Part shown: positions 3,340 to 62,673 of the stretch, one piece after another
Numbering within the stretch: the first letter of the stretch is position 1
Layout: every line of letters begins with the position of its first letter
Origin: Negaprion brevirostris
Lineage: Eukaryota
DNA length: 64,000 nt
Direction of reading: 5' to 3'
Assembly: GCA_030324005.1 (NCBI GenBank)
Contig: JARDVH010000121.1
Coordinates: 32,481,572-32,545,571, forward strand
Notes under the pieces: generated by a model
What the model was told of the DNA's origin: nothing
Database searches by the model: none
Seen by the model: the letters and a program-made list of their open reading frames with translations, nothing else
Translations under genes and position numbers: made by a program

Positions 3340-3532
3340 AGATGCTGGTGTTGGACTTGGGTGGGCACAGTAGGAAGTCTTACAACATCAGGTTAAAGTC
3401 CAATAGGTTTATTTGGAATCGCGAGCTTTTGGAGCACAGCTCCTTCATCAGATGACTCATTCACCTCACACTCACCTGATGAAGGAGGTGGGTTCTGAAA
3501 GCTTGTGATTCCAAATAAACCTGTTGGACTTT
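3340..3532. mobile_element. Penelope-like terminal repeat (pLTR) as an inverted pair with hammerhead-like cores
   Basis: AAAGTCCAATAGGTTTATTTGGAATC...CCTTCATCAG is mirrored by CTGATGAAGG...GATTCCAAATAAACCTGTTGGACTTT. Flanked by direct repeat GATCCATGCA (3328-3337, 3538-3547). Confidence 0.75.
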
Positions 3533-4514
3533 TACAGGATCCATGCAGACACACATTTGCCTCATTTTCTTTCCTCTTCCCTTCTCCAGTTTGGAGAAAC
3601 TTAGATCAACTAATCCAGCAACTCGGAATTCACCCTGCAACTTTTCTCTCTAGGTTTTAGTGCTGGCTTGGGCAGTGTCTTTAAAAACCAAATTATTTAA
3701 TTACAATTTAAACATCATCTTGTTTTAATAGTGTGGCTTGATGATCTCACTGAGAAACTGGCTTAAAGGCCACGCTGTGTGTGAGGGAGGGCTGAATTAA
3801 CATACACAGTTGTAATGGAAATCCCTAGATGAATGACAATATCAACTGATGTTGATTCAGTTGCATCAGGCTGTTGGACTCTGAAACACCAGTCTGTTTC
3901 CCCTTGCTTGGCTCATTGAAACCCATGGTTTAAATTGAAACATTTCAACCCTCTTCCTAAATAAACAGTAATATGAAAATAATAACTGCTTCCAGGATGT
4001 TAATAATTTACCTTAATTGTTTTAACCATTCAGATAGCGAGGCTTCTTCCTCAACCTACTGCTAATAATTATTTATTGTTGAGCAGAATATTCTGCTTTT
4101 TCCATCGTTATGTGGAATATTCTAACAGAGAAAGACTAAATATTTGGGAAGAAATAAAGAACTTTTGGCTTGAAGCCACTGTAATCGTTTGTAATATTAA
4201 AATTAAAACTATCATCCTTTTGTGGAAAGCACTTCGGTATCATGAAGAATCTCCTCATTAAACAAAGGAGGCTACACTATTTGTTTTGCAGCCAGCTATT
4301 GCTACTTACCAATGGGAATGTGAATGACAGTTGTTGGGAATTTCCTGTTTAAAATGCCTGGAGTTAATTTTCCCCCTGAATGAATATGGCAGGCACACAG
4401 TAAAATTCTAGGTTGGATGGCCACAACTGCTTTTTATAAAACTGGCAAATTGAAGTATCTGAATTATTTCCCCTGGTATTTGCTTTCGTTGGCTGTCAAG
4501 AGTCAAGTACTGAA

Positions 4515-10812: not shown

Positions 10813-10985
10813 GATTGACTGTGCTGGGATCTTGAAGCTGAGAAATGCTGACATCGAACTGAGGAAAGGAGAGACGGACATTGGCCGGAAGAATACCAGA
10901 GTGAGGCTNNNNNNNNNNNNNNNNNNTCCTCAAGCCAATGGCAGGGTGCTCTCACTACAGGTTGCTTCAAATCCCATTGAATGCT
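10813..10985 (+). CDS. NFATC2: NFATC2-like coding exon (Rel-homology domain; equivalent to human exon 5), 173 nt
   Basis: Translates [32 protein letters not shown][gap][19 protein letters not shown], a diagnostic NFAT RHD segment. Acceptor ttttggcatAG ends 10812; donor GTAAGT at 10986. The 18-N gap keeps frame and fits LVFRVHI. Confidence 0.96.
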
Positions 10986-11437: not shown

Positions 11438-12057
11438 TTAGCTCAGTTGGCTGGGTGGCTGGTTTGTGATGTGGAGTAACTACAACACTGTGCATTCAAT
11501 TCCTGTAAGAAGTCTGACAACACCAGGTTTAAGTCCAACCGATTTATTTGATAGTAAAATCACAAACTTTCGGGGTTTGTCCCTTCATCAGGTGAATGGA
11601 GAATTCTGACAAAGGGACAAACCCCGAAAGCTTGTGAGTTTACTATCAAATAAGTCGGCTGGACTCAAATCTGGTNNNNNNNNNNNNNNNNNNNNNNNNN
11701 NNNNNNNNNNNNNNNNNNNNNNNNNNNNNNNNNNNNNNNNNNNNNNNNNNNNNNNNNNNNNNNNNNNNNNNNNNNACCCCGAAAGCTTGTGAGTTTACTA
11801 TCAAATAAGTCGGCTGGACTCAAATCTGGTGTTGTCAGACTTCTTACTGTGTTTACCCCAGTCCAATGCCGGCATCTCCACATCATGGTTCAATTCCCGT
11901 GCCAGCTGAAGTAATTCATGAAGGCTCCGTCTTCTCAACTTTGCCTCTCGCCTGAGATCTGGCGATCCTCAGCTTAAAATCAACACCACATTCAGTTATC
12001 CCCAACAAAGGGGAGAGCAGCCCATGGTTATCTGGGACTGAGACGACTTTACCTTTA
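11438..12057 (+). mobile_element. tRNA-derived SINE interrupted by a Penelope-like insertion
   Basis: A-box-like TAGCTCAGTTGG at 11439. The B-box-like TTCAATTCC(T/C)GT is duplicated at 11495-11506 and 11889-11900. The body continues to GACTTTACCTTT near 12055. Confidence 0.65.
11507..11887. mobile_element. Penelope-like pLTR inverted pair (second subfamily) with hammerhead-like cores
   Basis: Inverted arms centred near 11600. Ends CCAGTCCAATGCCGGCATCTCCACATCATG, the reverse complement of the start of the 41184 copy. Contains a 100-N gap. Confidence 0.75.
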
Positions 12058-14033: not shown

Positions 14034-16993
14034 GTGAGTCATATTGTCATTCAAGTGAAGCTGGATGTGAATTGTATTGTTGACGAAACCTGAAAGCAAA
14101 TGCTCTGCTCAGTTTTTCTTCCTTTTGTGTCCCTTGAATTGTTCATTGATAGGTAGTATTCCAAGGAGGCAGGTGCAACCATTGTTCCATGTTGGGACCA
14201 ATAATGGCACAACCATTCTTTTCAGTGTGGTGTAGGCTGTATGAAATAGAGAGTTTTCCCTCTCCTTGAATTCAACCATTTATCTTCGGATCACACCTGC
14301 ACTGTGTCCAGTGTTGGTGCATTGTATGGCTCTTCCCTGTTGTCCCTCTGAATACAGTGCTGCTAATCCTAGACAATAAATGTATATATGTTATGAATTA
14401 CTTTGAAGCTGCTGTCAATTATTTCATTTAAAAATATTTTTACGCACGTATCGAGATTATTGATCGAGGAATGGAAGAATTACCAGTCAGGTAACTTGTT
14501 AGCATAAGGCACTTTTAGATTGGGGTGAGGAAAATATTATTTGAAGCAAAGGAAAGCTTTCTTTGTAATGTACCAGAAGCATGCGTTATCTTCAAGTCTC
14601 TCGTTGGACGGGATTTAATATTTGGGAAAGGGGTCTTGCTTGTCGGTGAGGAACTGGTGAGAGTCCCATCTTCCCTTCAATATGTGTCCTTTTGGTGATA
14701 AATTGCCAGCTTTGTGCCTTTCCCAGGATTAAGGGCCTTAGAGCAGAAATCCAGCCCCCACAAGGGGTGGTGCAGAAGCTAGGAGCTCTGTCTGTGCCAC
14801 TAGGAGTGGTGACAGCTGTGGGTAATAGATCCACCAGAAGCCTAAGATTAGCAAGAGAGCCCAGGCCAAATGTGACTGATGGCAGGATGTGGGTTATGGG
14901 CGAGGATCATGGGAGGAGGGTTGGAGGCAAAGGCAGTGGGTGGCTCCACTCTTCCCAATACTGGGAGCCTCAGCCAGGCACTGAATGCCTTTGAGCAAGG
15001 GACCCTTGCTATTTGGGATTGCCACCTTGTAACTTCCCCCAGCCACTTCAGGTTTAATACCAGAGGCAGTGAGGATGAGGCACTTAAGTGGGCATTAATT
15101 GCCCACCTGACAGCCTCAATAGATATCTGCCTGAGAAGGCTGTTCAGAAGCCTTCCTATCCAGACTTAAAGGGTCATAGACAGAAAGTGGCGGGTCCCAA
15201 CACCACACCCTCTTGCCAAATTAAAAATGCTGCCTCTCCCCCCTACACTTGATTCCACTATGGGAAGGGAGGGGATGGTGAAGTGTACGGGGGGATTGAA
15301 TATATGCCCCACTGGTGGTGCATTTTAATTGCTGCTGAACCTGTACTCCTCAAGCTCATAGCAGTGAGGCATAAAACAGGAGCTGAAACAAATGCCATTG
15401 TACAGAGAAGAAAGGAAGGAGGGCTTACAATTACTGTAGAAAGGTTCCACTCACCAGTTGCTACTCCGGAGGTCTATATTAGGTGATATTAAGTTGCCAA
15501 AGATGTGGAATATTAAAAACATCACTGCAAGGTAGTTTTTTGGCTCTCCGCGAAATGAGATAGTGTCTGTTTAATGGTATAACTTATTTACACACTTTGT
15601 ACAGCAATGTAATATAATTGACCATCTAGGAAAGATATGGGACTGGACTTTTCCAGGGGTGATTGGGACAGAGCCTGATGTGGCCAGGAATTCAAAATCA
15701 CGGTCTGGAGATTGTTGCAGGATTTCAATGCCTCCAGGACAGTTTGGAATTTTAAAAGGGCTGGCAGGAAGAGGGACTGGAAAATGCAGTCTCCACCAAT
15801 TAATGGCACCTTCAGTTGCTTAAAAAGTTTGCCAATTGAGATTGTAATTTTTATGTTTTTCCGGCAACCTGGGCAAGTTCATTGCTAATCCCAGGTAAAT
15901 TGTTTTGCGTTTTTTTTTTAAGATCTGCCCTATGGGCCAACTAATGCCAGCACGAGTGCTGCTTCTACCATTTGAGTCCGTTGCTGCTTTCTGCCACATT
16001 CCGCCTCAAGGAGTTGCCTGTTTTAAATGGCAAGTAGCAGCCCCTAACATGGTTACTGCCTGCCCTTGCTACTAGGGCCAGACAGGCAGCTCCTACTCAT
16101 AGAGCTGTAAAGCTCCTCTAATGGGGCTTCGAGCTTGCCTCCTGGCTAATTAGGTCATTTGCATTTACAAAAACTGTCATGAGAGTGACCCAACCTTGGC
16201 ATAGAGTCAGGGCCTGAAATTCATCCAGCCATTAGATTCCCAACACCACACTGAAAACCTGGCCCATGGTTGCACATTCGAAAAATCAGAAACCATCTGT
16301 GGCTTTACATTGTCCAAGAGTAGCTTAGTTTGAAATGAAAGTGGAATGTTTAATTCATTCTCATGAGGTTAGAGGTTATTCCGAACATATTTAGTAGGCT
16401 GGGAGCCTTCCAAAAGTGTCTACTGAGGTACAACGCCCAGAGCACACAAGACATTTTAGCCTGACCAACAAAAGAGTCCTCCATTGGCTTACCCAGACAC
16501 AGTGATGTTTGGTTACATTGGAAACCACAACAGTGAAGCTTCCCAGATTCAAGTAAGTGTTATTTTCTGGTAGGTTTACCCTCCCAGCGCACATAGAATC
16601 CCCACAGTGCAGTAGGAGGCCGTTTGGCCCATCAAGTGCACGCCAATAACAATAGCGCANNNNNNNNNNNNNNNNNNNNNNNNNNNNNNNNNNNNNNNNN
16701 NNNNNNNNNNNNNNNNNNNNNNNNNNNNNNNNNNNNNNNNNNNNNNNNNNNNNNNNNNNCATGCTTCCAGAGTGGCTCAAAATCCGGACTAAAATCTTGG
16801 CTGTGCAGCTGGTCAGCCTGGTTTCAGTCAGAGCCTGACACTCTGAGAAAACAGGGGAAAATTCCAACCCATATTTCTCTTCAAATGAATTAAGGCCGTG
16901 AAGTGAATGGCGCACACACACACTAATATAAATAGTGCCCAGAAGGAAGGAAGCATGGGTGTATGAGTTCCACTCTTCATGTTAAAAAGTTAT

Positions 16994-17284
16994 AAAGTTT
17001 ATTTATCAGTGTCATAAGTAGGCTTACATTAACACTGCAGTGAAGTTATTGTGAAAATCCCCCCGTTGCCACACTCCGGCATCTGTTCAGGTACATTGAG
17101 GGAGAATTTAGCAAGACCAATGCACCTAACCAGCACATCTTTCAAAAGGTGGGAGGAAACCAGAGCACCTGGAGGAAACCCACGTAGACAAGTAAAAAAT
17201 CCACACAGACAGTGACCCGAAGCCAGAATTGAACCCAGGTCCCTATGAGGCAGCAGTGCTAATCACTGTGCCACCATGCCACCC
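16994..17284 (-). mobile_element. HE1/V-SINE-like SINE, tail type B
   Basis: Same head and core; tail AAGTTTATTTA..GTAGGCTTACATTAACACTGCAGTGAAGTTATTGTGAAAATCCCC. Confidence 0.85.
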
Positions 17285-20878: not shown

Positions 20879-21170
20879 GGGTGGCATACTGGTTAGCACT
20901 GCTGCCTCACAGTGCCAGGGATCCCGTGTTTGATTCTCGGATTGGTTCACTGTCTGTGTGGTGTCTGTACCTTCTCCCATGTTGGCGCGGGTTTCCTTCG
21001 AGTGCTCTGGATTCCTCCCACAGTCTGAAAGACATGCTGGTTAGGTGCATTGGCCATGCTAAATTCTCCATCAGTGTACCCGAACAGACGCCAGAGTGTG
21101 GTGACTAGGGGATTTTCACAATAACTTCATTACAGTGTTAATGTAAACTTACTTGTGACATAAACAAGAA
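20879..21170 (+). mobile_element. HE1/V-SINE-like SINE, tail type B
   Basis: Head GTGGCATACTGGTTAGCACTGCTGCCTCACAG with A/B boxes, core, and tail GACTAGGGGATTTTCACA..CTTGTGACA. Confidence 0.85.
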
Positions 21171-31312: not shown

Positions 31313-31662
31313 CTCAAAAAGTATTGTGTTGTCTTTAAAGCACTTTAGGATGTGTAAAGGTCATAAAATGTGCTGTACAAATGCAAGTCCTTTCATTTCT
31401 TTCTGCCACTGTTGGATAATGTGAGGTGGATAGTGATAGTACCCCAGAGCAATTTGGACCTGAGCAACATTGCAATGTTATCGAGCAAGGCATTAAGTGA
31501 GATCATGGTTTAGAGTGGAGGGGGGAGTACAGGAAGACTTTGAGAATAACAAAGACATAGGAGTGAGACATACTCTAGTTGGGTTAAAGACGACCTTATT
31601 CACAGTCATGGCACAAGACAAAATGTTTTGTCGCCTCTGATGCTATTGTGAAGGATATGATT

Positions 31663-31964
31663 TAAGTTGATTTATTAGTGTCACAAGTAGGCTTACATTA
31701 ACACCACAAAGAAGTTACTGTGAAAATCCCCTGGTCACCACACTCTGACACCTGTTTGGGTACACTGAGGGAGAATTTAGTGTGGCCAATGTACCTAGCA
31801 TGCCTTTCAGACTGTGGGAGGAAACCAGAGCACCCAGAGGAAACCCACGCAGACACGGGGAGAACATGCAAACTCCGCACAGGCAATGACCCATACCGGG
31901 AATCAAACCCGGGTCCCTGGCACTGTGAGGTAGTAGTACTAACCATTGTGCTACCATGCCACCC
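31663..31964 (-). mobile_element. HE1/V-SINE-like SINE, tail type B
   Basis: Full head, core and tail B in antisense. Confidence 0.88.
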
Positions 31965-33670
31965 CATGATTGACAGGAAAAACTTTTGGAGCGGGTAGAA
32001 AGGTATTCAGAGTAAACAAGGAAAACATATTTCCTGTGGTTGTGGAATCAGTGATGGGAGGTAAGGGGTGGGGATGGGCACCAAATTGGAATGATTATTA
32101 ACAGCGTGAGAAAGGAGGGTGGGAGCAGTTTCTTTATATAGAGAGTTATTGGAGCATTGACTGCTTTCCCACAGGGAGTGGTTGAAGCAGAAACCATTGT
32201 CTTTTTAAGCAAAGATTGGAAACACACTTAAATATGAGAAAGATACAAGGCAAGGGAGAAAAAGTATGGCAAAGGGATTTGTTCTGAATTGCCCAAGCAA
32301 AATGAGAAGGATGATGGGCTGAATGGCCTTCTGCAAAAAGTTGCACATTTCGATGGTTCTACGGCATCTCTGGTAGTAATGCCTTTTGGACTTCCCATGC
32401 TTGTCAGTTTATTTGATTCTAATGGCAGCACAGTGGAGAATAATTGAAGGAAAAGCAGTTTTGGGGGTGGGATATCACAAAAAATGTCAAACTGGGGAGA
32501 AAACCAATGACTGCAAAGACACTTTCTCCAGTGACTCAAACAATGGTCACCCTATGAAAACCTTACTTGAGCAGACCAGATCCTAGATCTCCTGATGCAA
32601 ATATTTTATGCTGGTAAGGTGCCTGCTGTGAATTGAGTCTTCTTGAAATTGTGGGATTTTGCTCTGGGGGAACATGGTTCTAATTGTTGTATAATGCTAA
32701 TGAGTCTGGTGTTTGCGTGTAGTGCAACCTCACTCTGCCCCACAAAATTATGTGTCACAAAATGTGGCGCTCAGCGAATTGGGCCTCCAACCTCCCACAT
32801 GGCTCCAGGCTGCTGGAGGAGTCTCACAAGATCAGTCTTTTGCTTCATGGTTTCCCAAATGTGAATATAAAAGTAGAGACTTTGTTTGAAAATGACGATG
32901 TGAGGCCCTGCTCCTCTCTGAACCCTTACACTTTCAGTTTGGTATTGATTTAAGTGGAATCCTCGCTAGCCAGAAAAGAAAATCAAATGTTACATGTTTT
33001 CAAAAATACCAAATGCAGCTATAATTATAGCTTCTTAAAATAAATGGCATGTGGTGAATAATTAGAAATGAGTCATTGTGTGGGACTTTTTGTAAAATGA
33101 ATTAGAACCAGCTTCAATACAACATATCTTACATTAGGCTAATGTTGTGGATTTTCTATTTCAGACAATCATTCCGTGAAATAAAGTACAGACTTACAGC
33201 AATTGAAAGTACAACATTCTAAATAAATGTCAGTGAAGCTTCCTTAACTTTCAATGCCTGCTCCACTTAACATGTAAGCATGAAGGATCCAACATATATG
33301 GCATTCTTAACTAAAACTATCAACAGGGAATATTGGATTTAACATTGCTTCCAGGCTTCCACTTGGGCAGCAGAACACGTCTGTTAATGTTGCAGCGTCA
33401 CTTTTGTAATTCAAATCCTCGGTGTGTGAAATCTGTCTTTTTCTAAATGCTTTTGCCATTAGAATGCAAAAGCTGAACCTGTTTACGTTTCCAAATTAAG
33501 TTCTCCTTTAAATATAGCAGGCAAAGGAATTTCACACAAGCTAAGTGTTTGGAACTAATATCTGATAAGCCCAATTAACTGGACAATCCTGGGCCCACAA
33601 TTATAATTTCAATACCTTTTATTACTCGTATATTAGTCTTCATGTATTTGCACCATTGTAAAGTAAAGCA

Positions 33671-33968
33671 AAGTTTAATTGTTAGTGTCACAAGTAGGCT
33701 TACATGAATACTGCAATGAAGTTACTGTTAAAAATTCCCTTGACGCCACTCTCTGACGCCTGTTTGGATACACTGAGGGAGAATTTAGTATGGCCAGTGC
33801 ACCTAACCTACACATCTTTTCTCTGGGAGGAACCAGAGCACGAGGAGGAAACCCACACAGACACGGGAAGAATGTGCAAACACCACACAGACAGTGACCC
33901 AAGCCAGGAATTGAACCAGGTCCCTGGCTCTGAGATAGTGGTGCCAACCACTGTGCCACCATCCCACC
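33671..33968 (-). mobile_element. HE1/V-SINE-like SINE, tail type B
   Basis: Full head, core and tail B in antisense. Confidence 0.88.
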
Positions 33969-34806
33969 CCCATTGGTTACCTCCCAGATCTCATGTACAC
34001 AGCAACAATCCCAAGATTTCTTGAATCTAACTGTCAGGGATTCTTGATAGGAAAGAAAATATCTTCTTGGTTCCATTATATTTCAATGAAGCCCCTTGAG
34101 AAAGTAAACTAATTGCATCATCCTCCTGCACTCACCTTTGTAATATGCAACCAGTTTCTGATAAACTTACTGCATCGTTGGAATATAAGCTAAAGCAGCC
34201 ACTATATTTTGAGCAGTGCATATCTGTGGCATGGTTATGTTGTTTTGTCACACCAATATTGCTACAAAGAATACTGGCATGTCTGATGATAACATGATAT
34301 TGTATCATGGGCATCACCACCTCTGTGACCTACTGCTGGGCCAACAGCGACCCATTAAAACAATAGGTTTATTTTGATGTGGTAAGCAGACTTGTAAAAG
34401 TCCGCACCTGTGTTGGAAAGCTAACTATAAATTTTATGATGCAAATTAAAATATTGGATTGATGGATATAGGAATAAAAGGCAACTGCCACTTTGAATTG
34501 GCTTTTTTTTTCAAATTACTGTTTGCAAAACCTCCTTGTTTAATGGGAAGTGGTTTCTTCGCACATTATATATGTTCTGTGGAGCCATTTGCTTCATTAT
34601 GTGGTATGAAATATTCAAATAACGTACATCTTGGTGGAAAAATTCAGCTGATTTTGCATTGGTAGATTCAATGAATAATGTTAGATCTTCTAAGAATGCA
34701 CACAGAGGCATCGACTCTCACATTTGATACTGAATAACACTAATTCTAAATAGACTTACATTATCATTCATTTTGATTATTAATGGTGCTCAAACATTTC
34801 TTTCAG

Positions 34807-37900: not shown

Positions 37901-39786
37901 GTAAATGATGTGAAGAAACATCATGGATTCCCTAGTCCTAAATGTTCAACGTAGTTGAATCCAGAGAGTTGCTTGGTTTAGCCAAGGTCAAGTTGGTGTT
38001 TGGATGAAACATACTGACCACCTGACTTACACTGGGACAAGGAATTGAATGAGAAAAAAAACCCAGCTGCAGTCAGAACCATGTCTCCAGGCTAACTCAA
38101 TGCAAATGTTGCCAGGTTTTCTTTCAGCTATCCTTAAAGCTTATGGAAGAAGCCAAGCCACATTCAAACAAATGCATATTGTGCACATTTTCTTAGTTAT
38201 GAGCATGATTGGTGGTTAGTTTGTGCATGTAGCTAAAAGTTAAAATCCAGAAAGCCCCAGCAACTTCTTTCAGGGTATTTAATGAACTGAGGTTGTTGAA
38301 CAATTTTAGTTAATTTGATTTGGGCTAGTTGAAACCTTCAGAGAAATAGGTTAGGTTAAATTTAGCTTTCATTATTTGAATTGCTGCATAAGGAAAGGAC
38401 CATTGCGTCCATAAAGCCTGAATACAGTTTATAATGAGGCGGTTGATTTTTTTTTAAGAAGCTGAGATCCATATTTATTACAAATCTGTATTATATTAAT
38501 ATCTACACATTTGCTTGCACACCTATTAATCAATAAGATCTCCTGTTAAAGTCTGAAACAAGTTCAAATGTTGAGATGCGCTGCTGCGTTTTGAAGATAT
38601 GAGGATTATCCTGTGCAGCACAGGAAGGGTTCAGTTCCGAAAGCACATTTCTGCTTCCTATCCAGCCTTAATAGCAGAAACATTCCAAATTATCAGGGCC
38701 AGTGAAAGTACGTTAACAACTTAACAACATTAACAAAGCAGTTCAGCTTCATTTTACGAGAGTGATTGAAATACAGAAGCTGGATTGCTTTTGTAAAAAG
38801 GGCAAAGAACACCTTAAAATATTTTTAAAAGGTTAGCTAAACAGGCAATAACTTTCCAGCGCCTCATTGAATGGAATGCAGTAGGATAGTCTGAATCTAA
38901 AAATGTAATGCCATTCATTATTCTACTCATATCATGAATTTGAAGACGTGCTTGCTTTAAAGCACATATTTTTCATTGATATTGAAAAGGAATAATCTAA
39001 ACACTGAAGCTCTTCACTTCATATGGATATCATATAACAAACTCATCTGATGTGAACCCCTCTGAGCGACGTTCTAAGTGAAACATTTGGGGCTGGAAAT
39101 GTGATGGTGCCACAGCTGTTTTCTCTGATACTAAACTGATACATCCAACTTGACAAGACGGAACCACAGGCTGGTTATAAACCAGAAGTTTCCACCATGT
39201 TGGTTTGGAAGTCTCCAAGGCCTGTGTCTCAAAATGGCTTTTGGTCATTTCCATAAGCAGATGCGAAGCCAGACACCTGCTTAAGGTCCTCTGTGCATAA
39301 CCGGGCTGCCTGTAACATGGGTGGGGCCAGGCCAGTTGCACTCAGGGAAATCAGGTCAAAATGCCTTTGAACTTTTGAGGAACTGCGAACATAAAGATAG
39401 GAATAAAAATGTGTGCCTAAACATGGAGTTGGATGGTGAAGGAGTGTTCAGTCTTGGCTTCACATTCAAACCACTGGCTTCTACCAATCACTGTTCAACT
39501 TGACTGTTGGTCTCCTCTGCCCCGTCTTCACCCTCACCAACCACCCCCCTCTCCTCCCCACAAACCCCACTCCCCTCACCACATGCACCTTGCTGGTTGT
39601 CTTTCCTTCCCCTTTAAGTATTTACCTCGTGTACACCAGCATAGCAAAGTTATTGGCCCTGGGCTTTTAAAAGACCAAGTATTAAATAGCTTAACTAATT
39701 TGTATTGTGACTACATATTGTTCAGTAGTTGTAAGTATGTTAACATGAGCTGAGAATAAATGTACTTTCTATGTTATTTATTTCAG

Positions 39787-40632
39787 TACCTATTATTAAA
39801 ACAGAACCTACCGATGAGTGTGAAGATGCCATTTTCTGCACCACTGGACATTATAGAGCCATGTCTCAGTTCTATTCTTCACAGCAGGCCATGACTCCAG
39901 TAATGGTCACTAACCCCACTTCCTGCCTTGGGGGAAACATGGCTTCCTGTCGGTCTGGATTTTCTCCACATGATTCTAAGTACCAGCAGCAGAATCCAAC
40001 AGGGGTTGTCTATCAGAGATCCAAAAATGGCAGCCCTAATCATCTTGGCTATCAACCATCTGCAGTTATGGGGCCATCGATTCCCATAATTCAAGATGGC
40101 CACAAATCAGTACTGGTGCATGCTGGGTCACCTGCCCAGTCTTCTATGACGCACCACTCTCCAACCAATCAGTCCTCCACCATAATCCATCATTCCCATA
40201 ACAACCACGAGTCTTCCTCCATGATTCACAATTCTCCAACCAATCATCAGTCATCTCTGATCCAACACTCCCCAACCCATCAGCAATTATCTTCTCTGAT
40301 TCACCATTCACCAACCAGCCAGCAGCTGAGATACAGCAGCCACCAGGATTACCAGCGCCAGGTATATTCAGAGAATGATGCCCATGTGCCTATTGTGCGG
40401 TCCACTACACCACAAGCAGTACACCATGTGCAAAAAAGTAATCCAAATCAGTATGCGGCCGTGATCCAGCAGCAGCAAAATTCCAATGCAATCCAGAAGG
40501 TTTCCAAAAATGGCACTTCACCAACTCAGCTTACATCATTGATACTGGATCAGCAAGAGAAGGAACATCCAGTTACCGGAGTCACAGTGAAGCAGGAACC
40601 ACAGAATCTGGACCAGGCGTACCTGGATGATG
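39787..40632 (+). CDS. NFATC2: NFATC2-like large coding exon (C-terminal region; exon 9 equivalent), 846 nt
   Basis: Lies within the 299-aa ORF 39771-40670: (V)PIIKTEPTDE...HKSVLVHAGS...GVTVKQEPQNLDQAYLDD. Acceptor tttatttcAG, donor GTAAGA. Has IKTE and VKQE SUMO-consensus motifs and the YLDD exon end typical of NFATC genes. Confidence 0.95.
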
Positions 40633-41183
40633 GTAAGAAAAAAATTCTTGTCATAAAGTTATTGGTGTAACTGAAGTACAAGAACCTTTACAAAATATGA
40701 TACAGATTTTTTTAAAAAACGAAAATGTTGAGTATCACAAATCTCTTTTTAAAACAAAATCTCATGCAGGTATCTCTTGTCATTTTGAACTCATAAAGAT
40801 GAGGAATGACAGATTTCCTAGCCCCTGTCAGACTATCTCTCCCTGTACTGACTTTTGTTTGCTTACAGCATCAACTTCTTCCAGCTCCAGAATGAAAGGA
40901 TTAAATGCAATATCGAAATCTCCCTATCTAAATTTGTACCTGAGATCTTAACTTCTGAGAAGTGTCTCCTCCACACTGTTCAGTCACAATTTTTTTAATT
41001 TCCTGCACTACATAATATAATTACCCTTTTAACTGATATTATCCTAATAGCAATAGGTAACAGAAATCTATTTCATTTGTATTCGCTCAGTCTGCAATGG
41101 GACATTCATTTTGTTTGGAATTAGTACTCATCAGAAAAATGTTTTATCTATCTCAGTTAGGTTCAAAGACATGATTGTTTGGC

Positions 41184-41398
41184 CATGATGTGGAGATGCC
41201 GGTGTTGGACTGGGATAGGCACAGTAAAAAGTCTCACACCACCAGGTTCAAGTCCAACAGGTTTATTTGGAATTGCGAGCTTTTGGAGCACTGCTCCTTC
41301 ATCGGATGAACCGTTGAATTTTCACCTGATGAAGGAGCAGCACTCCGAAAGCTCATGATTCCAAATAAACCTGTTGGACTTTAACCTGGTGTTGTGAG
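41184..41398. mobile_element. Penelope-like pLTR inverted pair, right side lost in a gap
   Basis: Starts CATGATGTGGAGATGCCGGTGTTGGACTGGG; inverted arms centred near 41315; same family as 3340-3532. Confidence 0.78.
41322..41358 (+). ncRNA. Minimal type I hammerhead ribozyme motif (PLE-associated)
   Basis: TCAC-CTGATGA-A-GGAG-cagca-CTCC-GAAA-GCT-C-ATGA: both core boxes, a 4-bp stem II, palindromic AGCT in place of stem III, a CUC triplet and stem I TCAC/(A)TGA with one mismatch. Confidence 0.7.
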
Positions 41399-42934
41399 NN
41401 NNNNNNNNNNNNNNNNNNNNNNNNNNNNNNNNNNNNNNNNNNNNNNNNNNNNNNNNNNNNNNNNNNNNNNNNNNNNNNNNNNNNNNNNNNNNNNNNNNNN
41501 NNNNNNNNNNNNNNNNNNNNNNNNNNNNNNNNNNNNNNNNNNNNNNNNNNNNNNNNNNNNNNNNNNNNNNNNNNNNNNNNNNNNNNNNNNNNNNNNNNNN
41601 NNNNNNNNNNNNNNNNNNNNNNNNNNNNNNNNNNNNNNNNNNNNNNNNNNNNNNNNNNNNNNNNNNNNNNNNNNNNNNNNTAGATTGCCATGGGAAAGAT
41701 TCGATGGTAGGTGCTGATGACTTCAGCCACACCCATTGGCAGCTTTCAAAACCCGGCACTGAGGCAAATGGTCAGCTATAATCCATTTGAATGCGTTTAC
41801 TTGAGTCACCACAAGAGTCATTTAGGCACAGGGAGCTGAACGGAGCCTAAACCACTGTGTTACCTAGAACTCTGATCATTACATTTCTAACTGATGTTCG
41901 TGCTTAGTTTTTTTTTTGATAGTTTCTAAAACACATAAACACATGTAGTTTTATGAGGTGCATAAAGCTCATATAGAAGGATCTGAAAACATGAAGTACA
42001 ATAGCTAAAAGGTCGGCTTACAACACAGTTCAAAGGTAACACGAAAAGAATCTGGTTCGTGTCCAAAACCTCTTTTGGAAAGTCTTAGGAGTCCTAAAAG
42101 ATTCCATGTGGTATGGTTGTGATTTTTCCAGAATAAGTAGCTGAGATTAAAAAAAGGTCAGTTACATTAGTTTAGATTTGCAAAATGAATCACTCACAAT
42201 TTGGTAACTCGCTGTGATGTCAGGTGAGGACAGGAATTGGCTGGTCACGAAGCCTGCAGTGATTGAATAGTTCATAGGCAGTTTTGTCCCATTTACCAAT
42301 TTAAAACTTGCATGGAGATGAAATTATGTGGNNNNNNNNNNNNNNNNNNNNNNNNNNNNNNNNNNNNNNNNNNNNNNNNNNNNNNNNNNNNNNNNNNNNN
42401 NNNNNNNNNNNNNNNNNNNNNNNNNNNNNNNCATTTAAAACTTGCATGGAGCTGAAATTATGTGGCAAACATTTCTTTAACTTCTAATTCTTGAAATTTT
42501 CATCTGTGAAAATCTGATCTGCAATTGCAAGTTAGATTGGGCAATGTGCTTTTTTGCTGCATTTAGGCACCTTTATCATGAACAAACACACCTGCTAGGA
42601 ATAATGGAGATGATTTTAAGTCCGCCATTCCTGGAAGCTATTTAGCAACCTAATTTCCTAAACACCAAACTCTGTTGGCAAATGGGATCATTCATCCAAA
42701 AGGTCAATGGATGAGCCAGTTTGATATCTGATAATGAAAAGCATATGGAATTAATATCACTGCTGAATGGATTTACGTGGATTAACTCCTCCAATCTCAT
42801 GAATTGTCAATTTATTCAGATGGAAATCACCTCTGATATGAAAATTCCTATTTACGTATACGGTAGATAAGCCTAAATGTCTATATCAAGTATCAAATAC
42901 TTCACATTCATTCTACTCACATATTACTTGTGCC

Positions 42935-43355
42935 TGAACTACGCTGGTCATGTAACCAGAGTGCCTGACACTCGCTTACTAAAGCAAGTCTTTGACAGTA
43001 AGCTTGAGTCCAGGGTGCATTCCAATCAAACGAGATGCTACAAGGATATTCTGTCGGATTCACTTTGGAGTTTTGATGTCGACCCTAAATTCTGGCAGAA
43101 GTTTATCCAGGATCACTGCACGAAATAAAACAAGGTGCAGTCTCCTTCAAAAGCAAGCACATTTCAAAGGCAGGAGAGGAAATCCTGAGTTGGCAGCTCC
43201 CCCAAAACTCAATTGTCTTGTGTATCCTATTCTAATTACAACAGAACTTTCCAGGTACAAATGGACCTGAACAGTCTTCTCCATACCCACTGGAAGCCTA
43301 TCAAACACGTAGATGTTAACATGATCATCTTCGCTTGGAAGGACAAACAAGAAGA
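42935..43355 (+). mobile_element. RTE-clade LINE 3' fragment
   Basis: Peptide YAGHVTRVPDTRLLKQVFDSKL...RCYKDILSDSL resembles the RTE C-terminus (WAGHVxRMxDxRLPKxxxYGEL...RYKD); ends ACAAGAAGAA. Confidence 0.75.
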
Positions 43356-43644
43356 ATGGAAATAGTTCAATAATTTGTTCTGGTTACCCTTGTGCTAATT
43401 TAGATCTATGGATATGGAGATTAGATATATACAAAGTCAGAAAGGCAATTCTTATTCAGTTTCTCTATCAAGCATTCTATCCCCTCATCTGCTGAAGGTT
43501 TTGAATCTTTATTGGCTTCACCCCTACAAGCTCCCTCTGGCACCATATCTAAATTATTTATGCCTAAGTCTTGCTGTCAGGAAGTGATTGAATAATGGAG
43601 GCATTGGCCGTGATTTTCCGTTATCACTGTGGCAGGATTTGTGA

Positions 43645-43952
43645 TGGCACGGTGGCACAGTGGTTAGCACTACTACCTCACAGCCATAGGGATCCAGGTT
43701 TGATTCCTGGCTTGGGTCACTGTCTGTGAGGAGTCTACACATTCTCCTGTGTCTGTGTGGGTTTCCTCCGGGTGCTCTGGTTTCCTCCCACTATCTAAAA
43801 GTGCTGAATAGGTGGATTGGCCATGCTGAATTCTCCTTCAGTGTGTCCAAACAAGCGCTGGAGTCTGGCGACTAGGGGATTTTCACAGTGACTTTATTGC
43901 AGTGTTAATGTAAGCCTACTTATGACACTAATAAATAAACTAAAAAATAACT
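43645..43952 (+). mobile_element. HE1/V-SINE-like SINE, tail type B, nested in a MITE-like element
   Basis: GGCACGGTGGCACAGTGGTTAGCAC head through GACACTAATAAATAAAC tail. Confidence 0.88.
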
Positions 43953-46559
43953 TAAACCTGCTGTGGGGAATGTGGCAGACCAACTTTCCATGGGACTCAA
44001 AGATCCCAGTGGTGGATAGGACTGGAAATATCGGCCATTATATCAATCCTGATTGTGTCCCTTGTTAACGGCAGCACATGTACATTTTTAACAGATATCA
44101 GTAATCAGGAGAAAAATGCCTCACTGATATTTTCTTTCTTCTCTATTGTGCCATTAGTGCTGCCTTTGCTAAAACTAACTCAGAGATTCATCCTTTGTGC
44201 CCTGTATGATTCAGCTAATGCCAGGGTGACAGAAGCATCCTGAAGCACCATGTTGATGCTTCTGCAGATGTGCACTTCAAATTTACAAACAAAGAGCAGG
44301 AGTGGGCCATTCAGCCCCTCGAGCCTACCCCGCCAGTTAATAAGATCATGGCTGATTGAATAGTAACCTCAAATCTGCATTCTGTTTGATTTATTATTTT
44401 CACATGTATTAGCATGCAGTATTGCTTTTTGCATTCGGTACAAAGCATACTGTACATAAGGAAGGAAAAGAGAGAGTGCAGAATATAGTGTTATAGTCAT
44501 AGCAAGGGTGTAGAGAAAGGTCAACTTATGTGAGGTAAGTCCATTCTAAAGTCTGAAGGGAGCAGGGAAGAAGCTGTTTTTGTGTCAGTTGGCACGTGTC
44601 CTCAGACTCTGTGTATGTTGAGCACATCAACCCAACCAACTGGCTAGCTGTAGCTAGAGATAACAAAAGCATGGATGAAGGTTTCATGCAGATAAACTTA
44701 AATCGGGATAAGTGTCTGTGCATATTATGAGTAGATCATAGTGATGGAGGTGAAATGGCCCTGAAACTCAGTTCAGGGTTGAGTGAGACACTTGCAAAAG
44801 ACAATTGAGCAAGAAACAGGGTGGAATCGGTGGTGAGAGTGTTGATTTTGTGACGGGGACAAAAGACAATTGCTACAGTCTTAGTGTTTAGTTGGAGGAA
44901 CTTAATGTTCATCGGACAAAGGTTGTTTTAAGTCTGACAAAACAAAGAGAGATAAAGCTCAACTTTATCTACATGTATATGGAAGCTGATCTCATGCCTG
45001 CAAGTAATGTTACCGATACAGAAGAGGAGATGGGAAAAGAAACATCCTTGGGGAATTGTTGTGGTACATGGCTGGAAGAGAAGCCATTGCTAGTGATGCA
45101 CCAGGTACAATTGGATAGGCAAAAGTGGGACCAAGGGAGTATAGTCCCACTGAGCTGATCAATGGAGGAGAGATATTGGATGGGGTTTTATGGTCTCACT
45201 TACCCTGAAACCATAAAATCCCGCCCAAGGTCAATTGACCTTTCCATGGCCCCTCACCCGCTCCGAATCCCATAGCAGATGGGACAGTAAAATTCCAACC
45301 ATGAAGGAGATGCGGTCAACCTTGTCAAAGATACGTTGAATGCAAAGCGTTTAAGATATATTGTTTGCTTTAATAGAATACAGGGTAGTAGCTAAAACTT
45401 GCCAACTTAAAAAAGCATCATCAAAATACATCTTTTGTGATAAGCATCTCTTTTAATAATGATGAAACAATCTAAAACAAACACTCTTGAACCAATTGCA
45501 TAATGAGAGCAAATGAAAATAGTTAAACATGTAGTAATAACTAGAGTGAGCTAACGAACAGCTATTAGCTGAATTTAGTGCTTAACATAGATATCCAGAA
45601 TCATTTCCAGTTTGTTTGTCGCTGCGTGTGTTAGTTATAACATTATCGTTGTGGAATAAAAAAGGATTCAAACAGCATGGTGATCATATGTATGCAATCG
45701 ATCATAATACAAACCTCATGTGAACAGTAAGGCTGTTATTTATGAGACAGATTATAATGTCACAGTCAAATCACATTATAGCACATTCTGTTGCTACAAA
45801 GCATCCATTATAAAGGGCCACTCCCTAATACTTGCTGAAGCTCCAAAGTCTCAATAAAGCAATACTTTGAAAAAAATAAGTTGTCACTTCCGATGAGTTT
45901 GTGATGTTGAGATTTGACTGTACGATTGAGTTATTTATACTCGTGAATAATATGTTGGCAGCAATGGTTATGAATAGTAGGCAAGTTGTTATTTAGGAGT
46001 ATTATTGCAACGATTTCCTTAATATAAATTCTATTGATGTAAATTACATATTTAAAGCTGCAGTGCCTGTAATATAGCTTAACTATATTTCTGACCGGAC
46101 TTTCTTTTGAGGATATATTAAAGACTAAGGACTAGAATTGTGAGTGCATTATGTTCATGATGCTGATTTCCGCTCTTCGTACATAATGCCTTCTTGTGAT
46201 GGGCAGGTATCTTGAGCAAAGGAAGAATGCATCGTAAGAATTAGAAAGCTATATTTCCATTTGGCTTCACAAACAATCAAGTTAAGAAAGCAAGTCACTC
46301 TTGGTTCCCTACCTCGAGCTTTCCCTCGGCTATTAGCAATTTTGCTTATTAGGTAAGAAGCCTAGTGATGGGCCAAAGCCCAAAATACAGGACAACAAGA
46401 TGAATGCAGACATTGACGGAAGCTGAGGAATGCCGAGAGGAATCAGTAATAGGGTGATGGGATAAGCCATATTCCACTTTGATTTCATGGAATTCCAAGA
46501 TTTTTTACTGGTGTTTTTGGAATTGCATTTAACAATTCTATTCATTTCTGTCCTGAATC

Positions 46560-49733: not shown

Positions 49734-51193
49734 TGCCACAAGGGTGCTGTATGAAATCAGTTTGAGGGAGCCTCACGCTAGTTCCTGGTAGCCCACTGCA
49801 CTAAACCATCCCTAAATAGACACTAAATCGGAGCAGGTTTCCTATAGTCCAAAAAATCACACATACATTCTGCTTTTGCTTGAGCTTTGCATTTGAATTC
49901 AGACCATCTGAACTGAATAATGGTGATCTTTCTGGTTATGCACCACAGTAAAATAGTTGGGAATTGAGTGGCAATAGATGCCACATGGTACGAAGGCAGG
50001 TTATTCAACTTACTGCTTCTAGGTGTAGAATTCAGATCATCTGACCTTCACATAGAAATAAAACACACTTATCAACACTTTTTCAAATCAAAAATATTTA
50101 AACTCTTAATATCGTCAGAATACATATCACATTTTTGGCAATGACTAATATCATCTGCAGTTTTTCTCACCCTACCTACATGTGGCTGCTTACAGCCACT
50201 CGATCATTTGAGTTTACGTTTGTGAGAAGAAAGTAAAGGGAGGGAATTGAGGGGGAAAGAGGTTGTGATAGCTCATGAAATGTATATTAAGGTTTTATAA
50301 ATCCCACATTCTTTCCACTGAGTGATTTTCAAAGCATTCTCAGCTGAGCCCACTATAACCTGGCCCTTCTCAATCAGCCCCTTTATCTACAAACCACAAA
50401 ATATTTCCCATTGTTTGAATATCTGCACTTAATCTCAATCAGCTTGTTGTTATGTTGACTACCCTGTATTTGCTGGAGTTTGCACATCTTAATTGTAACA
50501 GTGGACACAGTTCATTGATAGACTCTGTAACTGAAATTGGGATGTTATTGGAAAATCATATTTACCATGAATGGAATGATGCATCAATATAATTCACAAC
50601 CAATATGTAATTTTGTTTGCATTTATAATTCTATAATATTTAAAACCTAAACTAGGTTTTTCTTTTTCATAAAGCAGCTATAACAAATCCCACGATTGCT
50701 NNNNNNNNNNNNNNNNNNNNNNNNNNNNNNNNNNNNNNNNNNNNNNNNNNNNNNNNNNNNNNNNNNNNNNNNNNNNNNNNNNNNNNNNNNNNNNNNNNNN
50801 NNNNNNNNNNNNNNNNNNNNNNNNNNNNNNNNNNNNNNNNNNNNNNNNNNNNNNNNNNNNNNNNNNNNNNNNNNNNNNNNNNNNNNNNNNNNNNNNNNNN
50901 NNNNNNNNNNNNNNNNNNNNNNNNNNNNNNNAGAGGTTTTGTAATGTACTGCTGCTAAAGGAATCAGTATCAAGCTCATTCTGTAAGTGTTAACCTATTT
51001 TAAATCAATGTAACTGAGTTTTTCTTATGATAATCTTTTAAAATTGGAGTTTCTGTTTACTTGGATGTTAAAGTTGAACTTCAACTTGTATCTCTTCATA
51101 AAATTTTTTTAAAGATATAAAGATGCATGACTTTTTGTTAATAATTAAGATCTTTGATCCAGTTTTTTTGTTACTGAGTGGGAAAGCTGAGCT

Positions 51194-51484
51194 TAAAGTT
51201 TATTTCGTACTCACAAGTAGGCTAACACTAACACTGCAATGAAGTTACTTTGAAAACCCCCTAGTCGCCACACTCCAGCACTTGTTCAGGCACACTGAGG
51301 GAGAATTTAGTATGGTCAATGCAGCTACCCAGCACGTCTTTCAGATTGTGGGAGGAAACCGGAGCACCCAGAGGAAACCCACACAGACACAGGAAGAACC
51401 TACACACAGACAGCGACCCAAGCCAGGAATTGAACCCAGGTCCTGGGAGGCAGCAGTGCTAACCACTGTGCCACCATGCCATCC
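51194..51484 (-). mobile_element. HE1/V-SINE-like SINE, tail type B
   Basis: Tail B, core and head in antisense. Confidence 0.88.
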
Positions 51485-52146
51485 CTTAAACTCACTGTCA
51501 GCGATAGCCCTGGTCCTGAGAAAGTCTAGCCTATAGCAAAACCAAAAATTACTCATTATATTCATACGACTACAGCTTTTAAGTGGTTGCAGTATTGAGG
51601 CCCTGTGAAATTCCCTATCGAATTGATTAACCTTGCTTACAAAGCTCCCCATCTTAGGGTTCCCAAACTTTGCATTTATTTTGCGATGACTGTACTTTAT
51701 CAAGCCAGATCCACAGCACAGTGGGAAAAGGACTTGCATTGAAATTAGTAGTTAGTCCAGAGCAAAGAGGTGCAGGTGGGTGGCCAAGCACGTTTGAAAT
51801 ACATTCACGGGCCCAAGCCTCAGTTTTGGGCTGGTTTTGATGTTTCATGGTCCACAAGAAAGGGGCGCACAGCAGCTTCCAGGCAGGTGAAGACCCAGTT
51901 ATCATTGGACATCCACCTGCTTGCAGGTAAGTGACAGGAAGTTGGTTGTTAGAGGGTCTCATGTGAGGGAAGAGGAAACAAGGTGGATTATCACACTTGT
52001 AAAGGCACAGCAGAGTCTATCTAGAATCATTTGTTCTTCTTTCAGGCAACCTTGAAGCCTTTAAGGTGCAGCATTGCACCTTCATCAGATTTTTATTGGG
52101 CCTATATGATGGACAGGCTGGATTTCTTTGGGTGGCCTGGGAATTT

Positions 52147-60378: not shown

Positions 60379-62673
60379 TTAAGACATGACACTATCAACA
60401 TGGGCACAACCTAGCCTTTGTAATCACTGTTGCTTTTTTGCAATCCCTGTATTTTTTTGTTGTATTGAATTCTATGCATTGTTGCCCTTCTACTTAAATT
60501 CAGAGAGAGTTTTTCTTGCTGATCTCACAATTGATCTATCTAAATATTAGCGTGCAGTGTACTTAATAATGAAATTAATCCAGACAAACATATCTAATTG
60601 TATCTGTTAAATCAGCGCAGCCAAGCCCATGCATATTAAATCGATCAAGGCCAGTTTACACATCTAAGTATTGCTCTTGCAGTTTGTTTTACATAGGTTC
60701 CAGTATGTGCATTACTGTCATGGGTAGCATCCAAAGAAACAGCTTATCTTTTATTGGCCCAGGTGGGCTAGCTGCGAAGATGTTCTCCTTTCGATATTCC
60801 AGCCTTGTCATAATGGATAAATGATTGTCAGGATAGTCAGTAATGAAGGTTATTGTAGAATTGTGAAAATCAACTACATTTTTATTTGAGGGCCTACCAA
60901 ACTAGGTTGCACCAGTGAAACTGAGTTTTTTTTACAGAAACTACATGGGACTTCTTCCAAAGGCTGGAACACTTTAATAAGGTATGTAGAGAAGATTTGA
61001 TTCCTGACAGTTTTGAATTGCAGCCCACTCAGGCAAAGCATGTGGGATATACTTTTTAAAAAATGTATTGTAGACTAATTCTGACCGTCGAATTGAGACC
61101 AGATTACATTCGGAGTGTGTGAATTTCTTCATTTAAAAAAAAGAATGTAAAAATGGCCTGTATGAGTGAGAGAAGGGAAACTGCAGCTATAACTCGGGGA
61201 GTCCCTGTCTATAGCACCCAGACAGAAATAAACTGGAGCCCTGACAAAACAACAAAAATTTAATTTTGAAGTCTGCAAAATACAGTGCACTCTTTTATAA
61301 CTGCACATATCCAATTTGTTATGATAGCAAAGTAAGCTCTATGGCAACCGTTGTAATATTCTGGTGCTGACTGCCCGGGAAGGATGGGGAAAGCCGTTGT
61401 TTGTTATTTCTGGCCGAGCTTGCTGGCTTGACTCTCTCTTATTCTGTAGGGGGACCTTTGAGAGCATTCTTTTCCACATGAGAAGCTCTGCCAATCTGGC
61501 ACGATCCACTCCCCACCACCCCCCCACAAACTCCTATTTTCAGCTGTTTGCCTCCAAAATGTCTGATCTACAGAAGGTTTACAGTGGCAAAAGTTATTGG
61601 AAAAAATTAAACACACAAGGGCACTTTGCAGAAATTTGTTGCATTGCTTAACAAGACTTCCCCCCCTCTATAAACAGCTCTTGTAAACTGCTGTGCACAG
61701 CTATCTGCTGTACTTCTTATTCACTTATTGGAGTGCCAAACTTTAAACCTTTTGATCATTTTCTTCAACTCTGGACCAACTATAGAAAAAATAATGAGGG
61801 TTTGGTTTGCAGGTAGCCCTCAGAATTTGACATTCAGCAATTTTTGTGTTTTATTCTTTAATGAAAATCATATTGGGATTTCTGTTCAGTGAGTGCTGAT
61901 ACTTGTAATCTACTTGCCAGTTTAAGAAAGGGTTCTGTTGAGATTACTGGGGAAGAAAAACAAATAGCAACCACAGGCATAAAAAGTCTCCATTTAGTTC
62001 AGTCTATTGTTAGTATTCTGCTCTATGATTGATAAGTTAATGTTGTTGTACTGGAGTTGCCATGTGATAGAGTGTTTTCCCTGATACCACCCACATTCCA
62101 CAGGCCTCACATAGTTGCTCCTTATTTCACTATGAGTCATTAGCGGCTACTGTGTCCAAAAAGGTAATAAGTTTATCTAGCTTTTTGTTTATTCAGTGAA
62201 AACTCTGAATGAAATAACATTGGTCAGCTCTGGAAGTCTATCTACGGAAGTCTTGCGATGACAACATTTGACAATTTTTTTTGTATGATGGGTAATTCTC
62301 ACGGCCTGGACAGCTGCAAAAATAAACTGAACTACCAATTGTATTACAGGTGCTATAAGAGGAGGGACATGACCTTTGCTGTATTGCAAATATTTTCCAA
62401 TTTGCAATTTTTTAAAAAAATTGCCATTTCCTTGATGGAATGTCAAAATGGTTTGTGGAAAATGGAAAATATGCACCACAGCAGCAGAGATGTCCAGAGA
62501 ACAGCGCTAAAGATATGCTTGAAAAAACAAAAAAGTCTACTTTTACTGTTTTTCTTGTTATTTTACATCTAAGGTAACTGGGTCAATTCTTTTTTCGAAT
62601 TATTAGATATACCAAGACAAAAACTGAAAGGGTAATTTTTGTGTTGACCAAGGTGTCATGGATTGATATATTC

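Follow-up and report, generated by a model that had tools for sequence, protein, structure and literature searches.

Can a hammerhead ribozyme motif that lies in an intron of the shark NFATC2 gene cut the pre-mRNA in which it is transcribed? The question arises from a stretch of 64,000 nucleotides of Negaprion brevirostris DNA (the window, to which all positions refer), for which an initial annotation had described an apparently intact minimal hammerhead, of the kind carried by Penelope-like elements (PLEs), that could act on the transcript. The letters of the motif were re-read in the window sequence and match as described. The 37 bases at 41322-41358 of the + strand contain the C3-A9 box CUGAUGA (41326-41332), an extra A between positions 9 and 10.1 (41333), a stem II of four Watson-Crick pairs with a 5-nt loop (41334-41337/41343-41346), the GAAA box (41347-41350), a palindromic AGCU (41350-41353) and a CUC triplet whose C17 is 41354, with the predicted cut after 41354. 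Stem I is made of 41322-41325 and 41355-41358, and its innermost pair, C41325 opposite A41355, is a mismatch, as had been pointed out. The assignment of the whole as a minimal type-I hammerhead motif draws on the pattern, a model match and comparison with a family sample.

Hammerhead searches were carried out by pattern and by covariance model. A degenerate minimal-hammerhead pattern matched once in the window and in none of 100 shuffles, but a covariance-model scan of 38000-45000 gave no match to the Rfam hammerhead families up to an E value of 10. The Rfam hammerhead models presuppose a helix III. Thus, 'apparently intact' holds for the two boxes, stem II and the cleavage triplet but not for the 2.1-1.1 pair, which is broken, and the Rfam models are unmatched. 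Rfam microRNA and snoRNA matches were also obtained in 38000-45000; all scored below the gathering score and were set aside as generic hairpin or chance matches.

NFATC2 lies on the + strand, where two upstream exons have NFATC2 structures as their best match. The coding exon at 39787-40632 (+), which we take to be exon 9 by the numbering of the human gene, is preceded by AG and followed by GT, and its translation is 84-90% identical to shark NFATC2; Pfam gave no match on the peptide of this exon. A downstream exon at 60938-60990 (+), with AG at 60936-60937, was found by tblastn with the isoform P0003 (83% over 18 amino acids, E 3e-5) and is an alternative last exon. The other NFATC2 last exon, of the P0004 type, is absent from the window. 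Since one NFATC2 exon ends at the 40632 donor and another begins at 60938, the hammerhead, which starts 690 nt after the donor in the sense orientation, is intronic, and the placement about 0.7 kb into the intron stands. The long exon also carries an expanded His-Ser-Pro-Thr tract (40120-40340), which by overall identity is common to other shark NFATC2 proteins. Elsewhere in the window, an 18-N run interrupts a coding exon at 10909-10926.

The features of the motif were compared with those of the minimal hammerheads of PLEs (Cervera and De la Peña 2014, PMC4209133; this and the other publications cited were drawn on in part). Like these, it is of type I, has no helix III and has a short helix I, an extra nucleotide between 9 and 10.1 (A41333), a G10.1-C11.1 pair (G41334-C41346) and a palindrome, at 15.2-16.2 here and at 15.1-16.1 in the published class. 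The boxes conform to CUGANGA and GAAA and the triplet to NUH. The closure of helix I beside the cleavage site is absent in the focal copy and kept in the family majority, so that the motif, judged by its letters, is a decayed member of this class. It differs from the published class in its shark host, a stem II of only 4 bp, the loss of the 2.1-1.1 pair and its tight fold-back; no shark is named in the parts of PMC4209133 covered here or in its supplement file 2. Over 41322-41357 the focal motif shows 2 differences in 36 from the sample majority (41342 and 41355), both CpG to CpA. Two or fewer differences were found in 6 of 64 sampled copies, so the focal arm is among the best preserved without being exceptional.

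The element that carries the motif was identified from longer copies. Among the first 30 loci with the exact core, three (L023, L025 and L029) have in common about 900 bases upstream of the motif that encode the degraded end of a GIY-YIG-type endonuclease. A genome search with this fragment gave 150 scored matches from 20,162 candidates, and 19 new loci were examined. In seven of them (L064, L065, L070-L072, L075 and L078) the hammerhead pattern lies about 630 bases after the match start; several of the others are short contigs or gapped, and L068 has reverse transcriptase (RT) motifs upstream. Pfam gave no match for the degraded endonuclease fragment of L025 and no RT match for L068; the element protein was identified through homologues instead: its database relatives, mostly shark, pass the Pfam cut-off for RVT_1 and stay below it for GIY-YIG (E 8e-4 to 5e-3). 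In the longer copies the pLTR lies downstream of an open reading frame with RT and, at the C terminus, a GIY-YIG domain; the coding part is absent from the focal stub. Since the motif follows RT/GIY-YIG remnants in longer copies, it is the pLTR hammerhead of an endonuclease-bearing PLE, as the initial annotation had proposed, and the family majority has both the CUGAUGA and the GAAA box. A CX4CxxC linker before the endonuclease is visible in the translations of L025, L062, L064, L069 and P0031. Such a linker between RT and endonuclease (CX2-5CxxC) marks the Neptune clade, and also Nematis (Craig et al. 2021, PMC8557442), which suggests from the motif a Neptune-type family. Pieces of Penelope protein were also seen inside annotated shark proteins (P0033, P0036, P0038, P0039 and P0041, which are NOXP20-like, septin 5a, XRCC5, PPP1R12A-like and USP8 isoforms); these are either exonisations or gene-model artefacts.

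The family is very abundant. A 29-base core pattern had 2,230 exact matches in the genome (reversed control, 0) and the adjacent 29-mer had 15,827. Among the exact-core copies, inner stem I is intact in 1,114, and 280 have the C-A mismatch of the focal copy. A family sample, chosen on the downstream 29-mer only, comprised 70 loci and 95 arms. Fold-back pairs numbered 22 among these arms; of the 20 that could be scored, 18 carry a tail of about 35 bases on one arm and not on the other. The other 51 arms comprise 8 with a more diverged inverted partner, 9 that abut a gap and 34 solo arms; in the sample, two copies on the same strand within 3 kb occurred once. Thousands of dispersed single copies with some opposite-strand pairs are likewise described for the published class (PMC4209133). 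The inverted arm with a one-sided tail matches the complex insertions of endonuclease-bearing PLEs, which have an inverted, 5'-truncated copy at the 5' side and a 30-40-bp tail at one end (PMC8557442). It also matches the two reverse-transcription start sites of the anole element, the Poseidon element PAc, which resembles the focal family in its pLTR hammerhead and in two 3' end points that bracket the tail (PMC11167929). Unlike the insertions of PMC8557442, both halves of the focal stub are cut to less than 130 nt, so that no coding sequence is left.

Two further copies lie in the window. A second fold-back of the same family at 3340-3535 contains a + strand hammerhead at 3469-3509, with an intact core, a paired stem I and a weakened stem II; apart from the focal motif, the + strand of the window has no further copy, and this one lies 37.8 kb upstream of it. 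A third copy, at 11505-11888, belongs to a different subfamily: its stem II has another sequence and its 15-16 region is not palindromic. A stretch of 55 bases occurs twice there, once on each side of a 100-N gap, a likely assembly overlap. The window also holds a SINE-like repeat of about 300 bp in at least six copies of about 80% identity (16993-17284, 20880-21160, 31661-31965, 33670-33970, 43643-43947 and 51193-51485) and a related family of about 250 bp. A 33-base duplication flanks a 100-N gap (42299-42331 and 42433-42465) and is likewise a likely assembly overlap.

The focal element is a stub that extends from about 41185 to just past 41398, and the hammerhead starts the right arm of its inverted repeat. 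The outermost part of its left side (41185-41232, - strand, the sense of the element) is the pLTR 3' end with a tail of about 35 nt; family contigs have loose ends at 41185, and the assignment also draws on the one-arm tail pattern of the family. The left arm (41233-41310, -) is 78 nt long, 87% complementary to the right arm and antisense to the hammerhead on the + transcript. It carries a second, broken hammerhead (41272-41312, -) which matches the model with 35.7 bits, has U4 and G12 changed and shows 6 differences from the sample majority in 36 nt. A junction of 10 nt (41311-41320) separates the arms. The right arm (41321-41398, +) is a 5'-truncated pLTR end that enters an assembly gap of 282 N (41399-41680). 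Because the left arm carries the tail, only a few more bases of the right arm are probably hidden in the gap, which would then continue as single-copy intron.

The content of this gap was addressed with contigs that cross it; the initial annotation had asked whether a tandem partner copy follows there. In each of three other organisms, one contig spans the gap from 41398 to 41681, with the same depth as the unique flank. Of the 323 letters by which each contig extends beyond 41681, 23 lie on the arm, leaving about 300 between by subtraction; the 23-letter overlap is below the 31-letter bar, and the join was judged by overlap and depth. This gives a weak hint that the gap holds about 300 single-copy bases rather than a tandem partner. 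A tandem hammerhead copy was not seen in the window by model search, and the gap contigs point weakly against one. Contigs of the shark's own genome that overlap the gap were limited to the window itself. No target-site duplication was seen after the gap, and the right border lies inside the N run. The insertion appears to be common to the three other organisms, so that it would have been kept for some time.

The effect of the inverted arm on the hammerhead was calculated by RNA folding. The 179-nt element was predicted to form one hairpin of -117 kcal/mol (z = -19) with 72 pairs, including an uninterrupted helix of 26 bp. At equilibrium, in a calculation that includes neither proteins nor kinetics, freeing the core and forming stem II costs 16.9 kcal/mol when stem II emerges and 27 thereafter. 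The antisense arm is transcribed first, so the penalty is present as soon as stem II emerges. The probability of stem II in transcript prefixes ending at 41346-41398 was 2e-8 to 6e-14, and without the left arm it was 0.73 (to 41358) and 0.27 (to 41398). The early suspicion that the upstream arm may sequester the hammerhead is thus borne out by prediction. The hammerhead on the opposite strand and the copy at 3476 were predicted to be locked likewise. Co-folding of two free motifs gave a duplex that is not a hammerhead, with a program that models dimeric hammerheads poorly.

A mismatch beside the cut site strongly lowers the cleavage rate of hammerheads. The size of this effect for the 2.1-1.1 pair was reportedly given by Werner and Uhlenbeck in 1995. 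PMC3923133 has a one-line citation on a mismatch beside the cut site. For the minimal hammerheads of PLEs, monomers are described as inactive and dimer activity as low (PMC4209133; reviewed in PMC6765202). The anole hammerhead was tested with an active protein, unlike the focal family, and cleaved only when the element's protein was present; a search of RNA-seq data for ends at its site found none (PMC11167929).

Decay of the motif was followed in the 64 of the 95 arms that span it. The core was intact in 26 of these; 16 also had stem II, and in 10 everything was kept, including inner stem I and the palindrome. Position 1.1 is G in 51/64 and A in 11/64. As the family base is G in a CpG context, the C-A mismatch of the focal copy is most simply explained by CpG decay. 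At non-CpG sites of 63 copies, one poorly aligned row having been dropped, identity to the majority was 589/627 (93.9%) in the core and 566/620 (91.3%) in the flank (P = 0.08), in a comparison biased towards the core by the requirement that copies span the motif. Of the 63 copies, 30 keep the CpG at C11.1-G12 and 21 the loop CpG. With six gap-adjacent copies set aside, the core was intact in 15/35 free and 8/22 hairpin-covered copies (P = 0.78) and the whole motif in 6/35 and 4/22, respectively, in a small sample that carries no gene annotation. Purging of unlocked intact copies was not seen in this sample (35 versus 22). These sequences thus give no convincing sign that the ribozyme has been selected, positively or negatively, since insertion.

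The focal hammerhead is very probably a silent fossil in the fold-back stub of a very high-copy Penelope-like retrotransposon, because the upstream antisense arm is predicted to pair with it during transcription of the intron. The motif is part of the pLTR, which in longer copies comes after the coding region for RT and GIY-YIG. To judge from the tail pattern and from published PLE insertions, two rounds of reverse transcription by an active element would each have copied no more than its 3' end, the tail being included in one round and left out in the other, and these two short pieces would then have been linked head to head. After insertion, CpG deamination may have changed G1.1 to A on the focal arm and broken the core on the other. 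In the NFATC2 pre-mRNA the antisense arm would emerge first, and the predicted hairpin of about 72 pairs would occupy the whole catalytic core. With no free core, stable stem III, neighbouring partner or intact 2.1-1.1 pair, the focal copy would cleave at no appreciable rate, and splicing would remove the intron in the normal way. Some observations point the other way: the focal arm is well preserved, the core identity is slightly, though not significantly, higher than that of the flank, and the insertion is apparently shared.

In a very unlikely alternative, the fold-back would owe its retention to a function as double-stranded RNA, whether as an editing substrate, as a precursor of small RNAs or as a modulator of splicing, and the hammerhead would be incidental to it. 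The long predicted helix, the apparent presence of the insertion in related organisms and the sub-threshold Rfam microRNA-hairpin matches would agree with this. However, fold-backs are the common insertion form of the family, the mismatches between the arms are uncompensated, and the microRNA matches reach 43.6 bits against a cut-off of 90.8, as any long hairpin gives. If the fold-back has an RNA-level role at all, the likeliest candidate would be that of a double-stranded substrate, for example for A-to-I editing.

There is only a very slight chance that the focal copy cuts the NFATC2 pre-mRNA at 41354, helped by a dimer partner in the gap, another transcript or the element protein, and so affects last-exon choice or transcript level. 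Both boxes, stem II, the palindrome and the NUH triplet are intact, and the motif is sense to NFATC2 between a constitutive exon and alternative last exons. Protein-assisted cleavage has been shown for one PLE (PMC11167929), and amniotes have domesticated intronic hammerheads (RECK and others, PMC6155905) which, like the focal one, are of type I and related to retroelements. Those are canonical, single-locus and deeply conserved, whereas the focal copy is one of thousands of decaying repeats. The predicted sequestration of 17-27 kcal/mol and the broken 2.1-1.1 pair stand against cutting, as do the single-copy depth of the gap-bridging contigs and the non-hammerhead duplex formed by two free motifs. 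No partner is evident either; the sole other + strand copy, far upstream, is itself predicted to be locked. Given the predicted hairpin lock, the weak activity of published relatives and the effect of the mismatch, it is unlikely that this copy cleaves NFATC2 pre-mRNA. The proposal that it could cut is disfavoured by the predicted hairpin capture, a mismatch that departs from the family base and the want of an evident partner, and more than 1,000 copies are better preserved.

Covariation was analysed in 51 sequences, the three window copies and 48 of 59 listed arms (11, mostly with indels, were left out). Stem II is paired in 93%, and a G-C pair is swapped for A-U in 6/51. Double-change cells in stem II numbered 12 versus 3.8 in shuffled data, with 0/500 shuffles as high, and two pair-level measures were not significant (60/500 and 97/500 shuffles); relatedness was uncontrolled. 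These results lend modest support to a hammerhead structure in the ancestral elements. The idea that the motif resembles a hammerhead by chance and belongs to a repeat without a ribozyme, such as a MITE, has next to no probability and is already largely refuted: the unmatched Rfam hammerhead models and the non-significant pair-level measures would fit it, but the motif sits in a pLTR that follows RT/GIY-YIG remnants, it has all four additional hallmarks of PLE minimal hammerheads, the positions that vary (N7, loop II and N17) are those which hammerheads leave free, and stem II shows the pair swap.

The silent-fossil reading can be set beside other small ribozyme elements. Non-LTR retrozymes (bioRxiv 10.64898/2026.07.22.740005) are, like the focal element, short non-coding PLE-derived units with type I hammerheads; they were found in one chondrichthyan, and large fractions are intronic in Xenopus. 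They are direct tandem units, whereas the focal element is an inverted pair. A published description of a Penelope hammerhead in a shark was not found in a literature search or in supplement file 2 of PMC4209133. The class of PLE minimal hammerheads has been known since 2014, and the extension made here would be a shark family of Neptune type whose fold-back stubs are predicted to silence their own ribozyme.

For a test of intronic cleavage, another locus is better suited than the focal one. The copy at L005:1501-1529 (-) has the exact core, an intact stem I and no upstream antisense arm. It is sense to an apparent exon with an open frame about 200 bases downstream, presumably of an EBF/COE-type gene by name.

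As it stands, the focal hammerhead matters little. In a speculative extension that we regard as a long shot, the more than 1,000 intact minimal hammerheads of the shark, which lie in both orientations, would give rise to a genome-wide layer of pre-mRNA cleavage: fold-backs would act as antisense locks on either strand, unlocked sense copies in introns could undergo cleavage in trans, as dimers or helped by Penelope protein, and the NFATC2 copy would be locked but switchable. If the focal or unlocked intronic copies cleaved pre-mRNA, transcript cleavage would have a hitherto unrecognised source in a very abundant repeat. If this were true, the in vivo role of PLE hammerheads would be testable by orientation bias over thousands of insertions.
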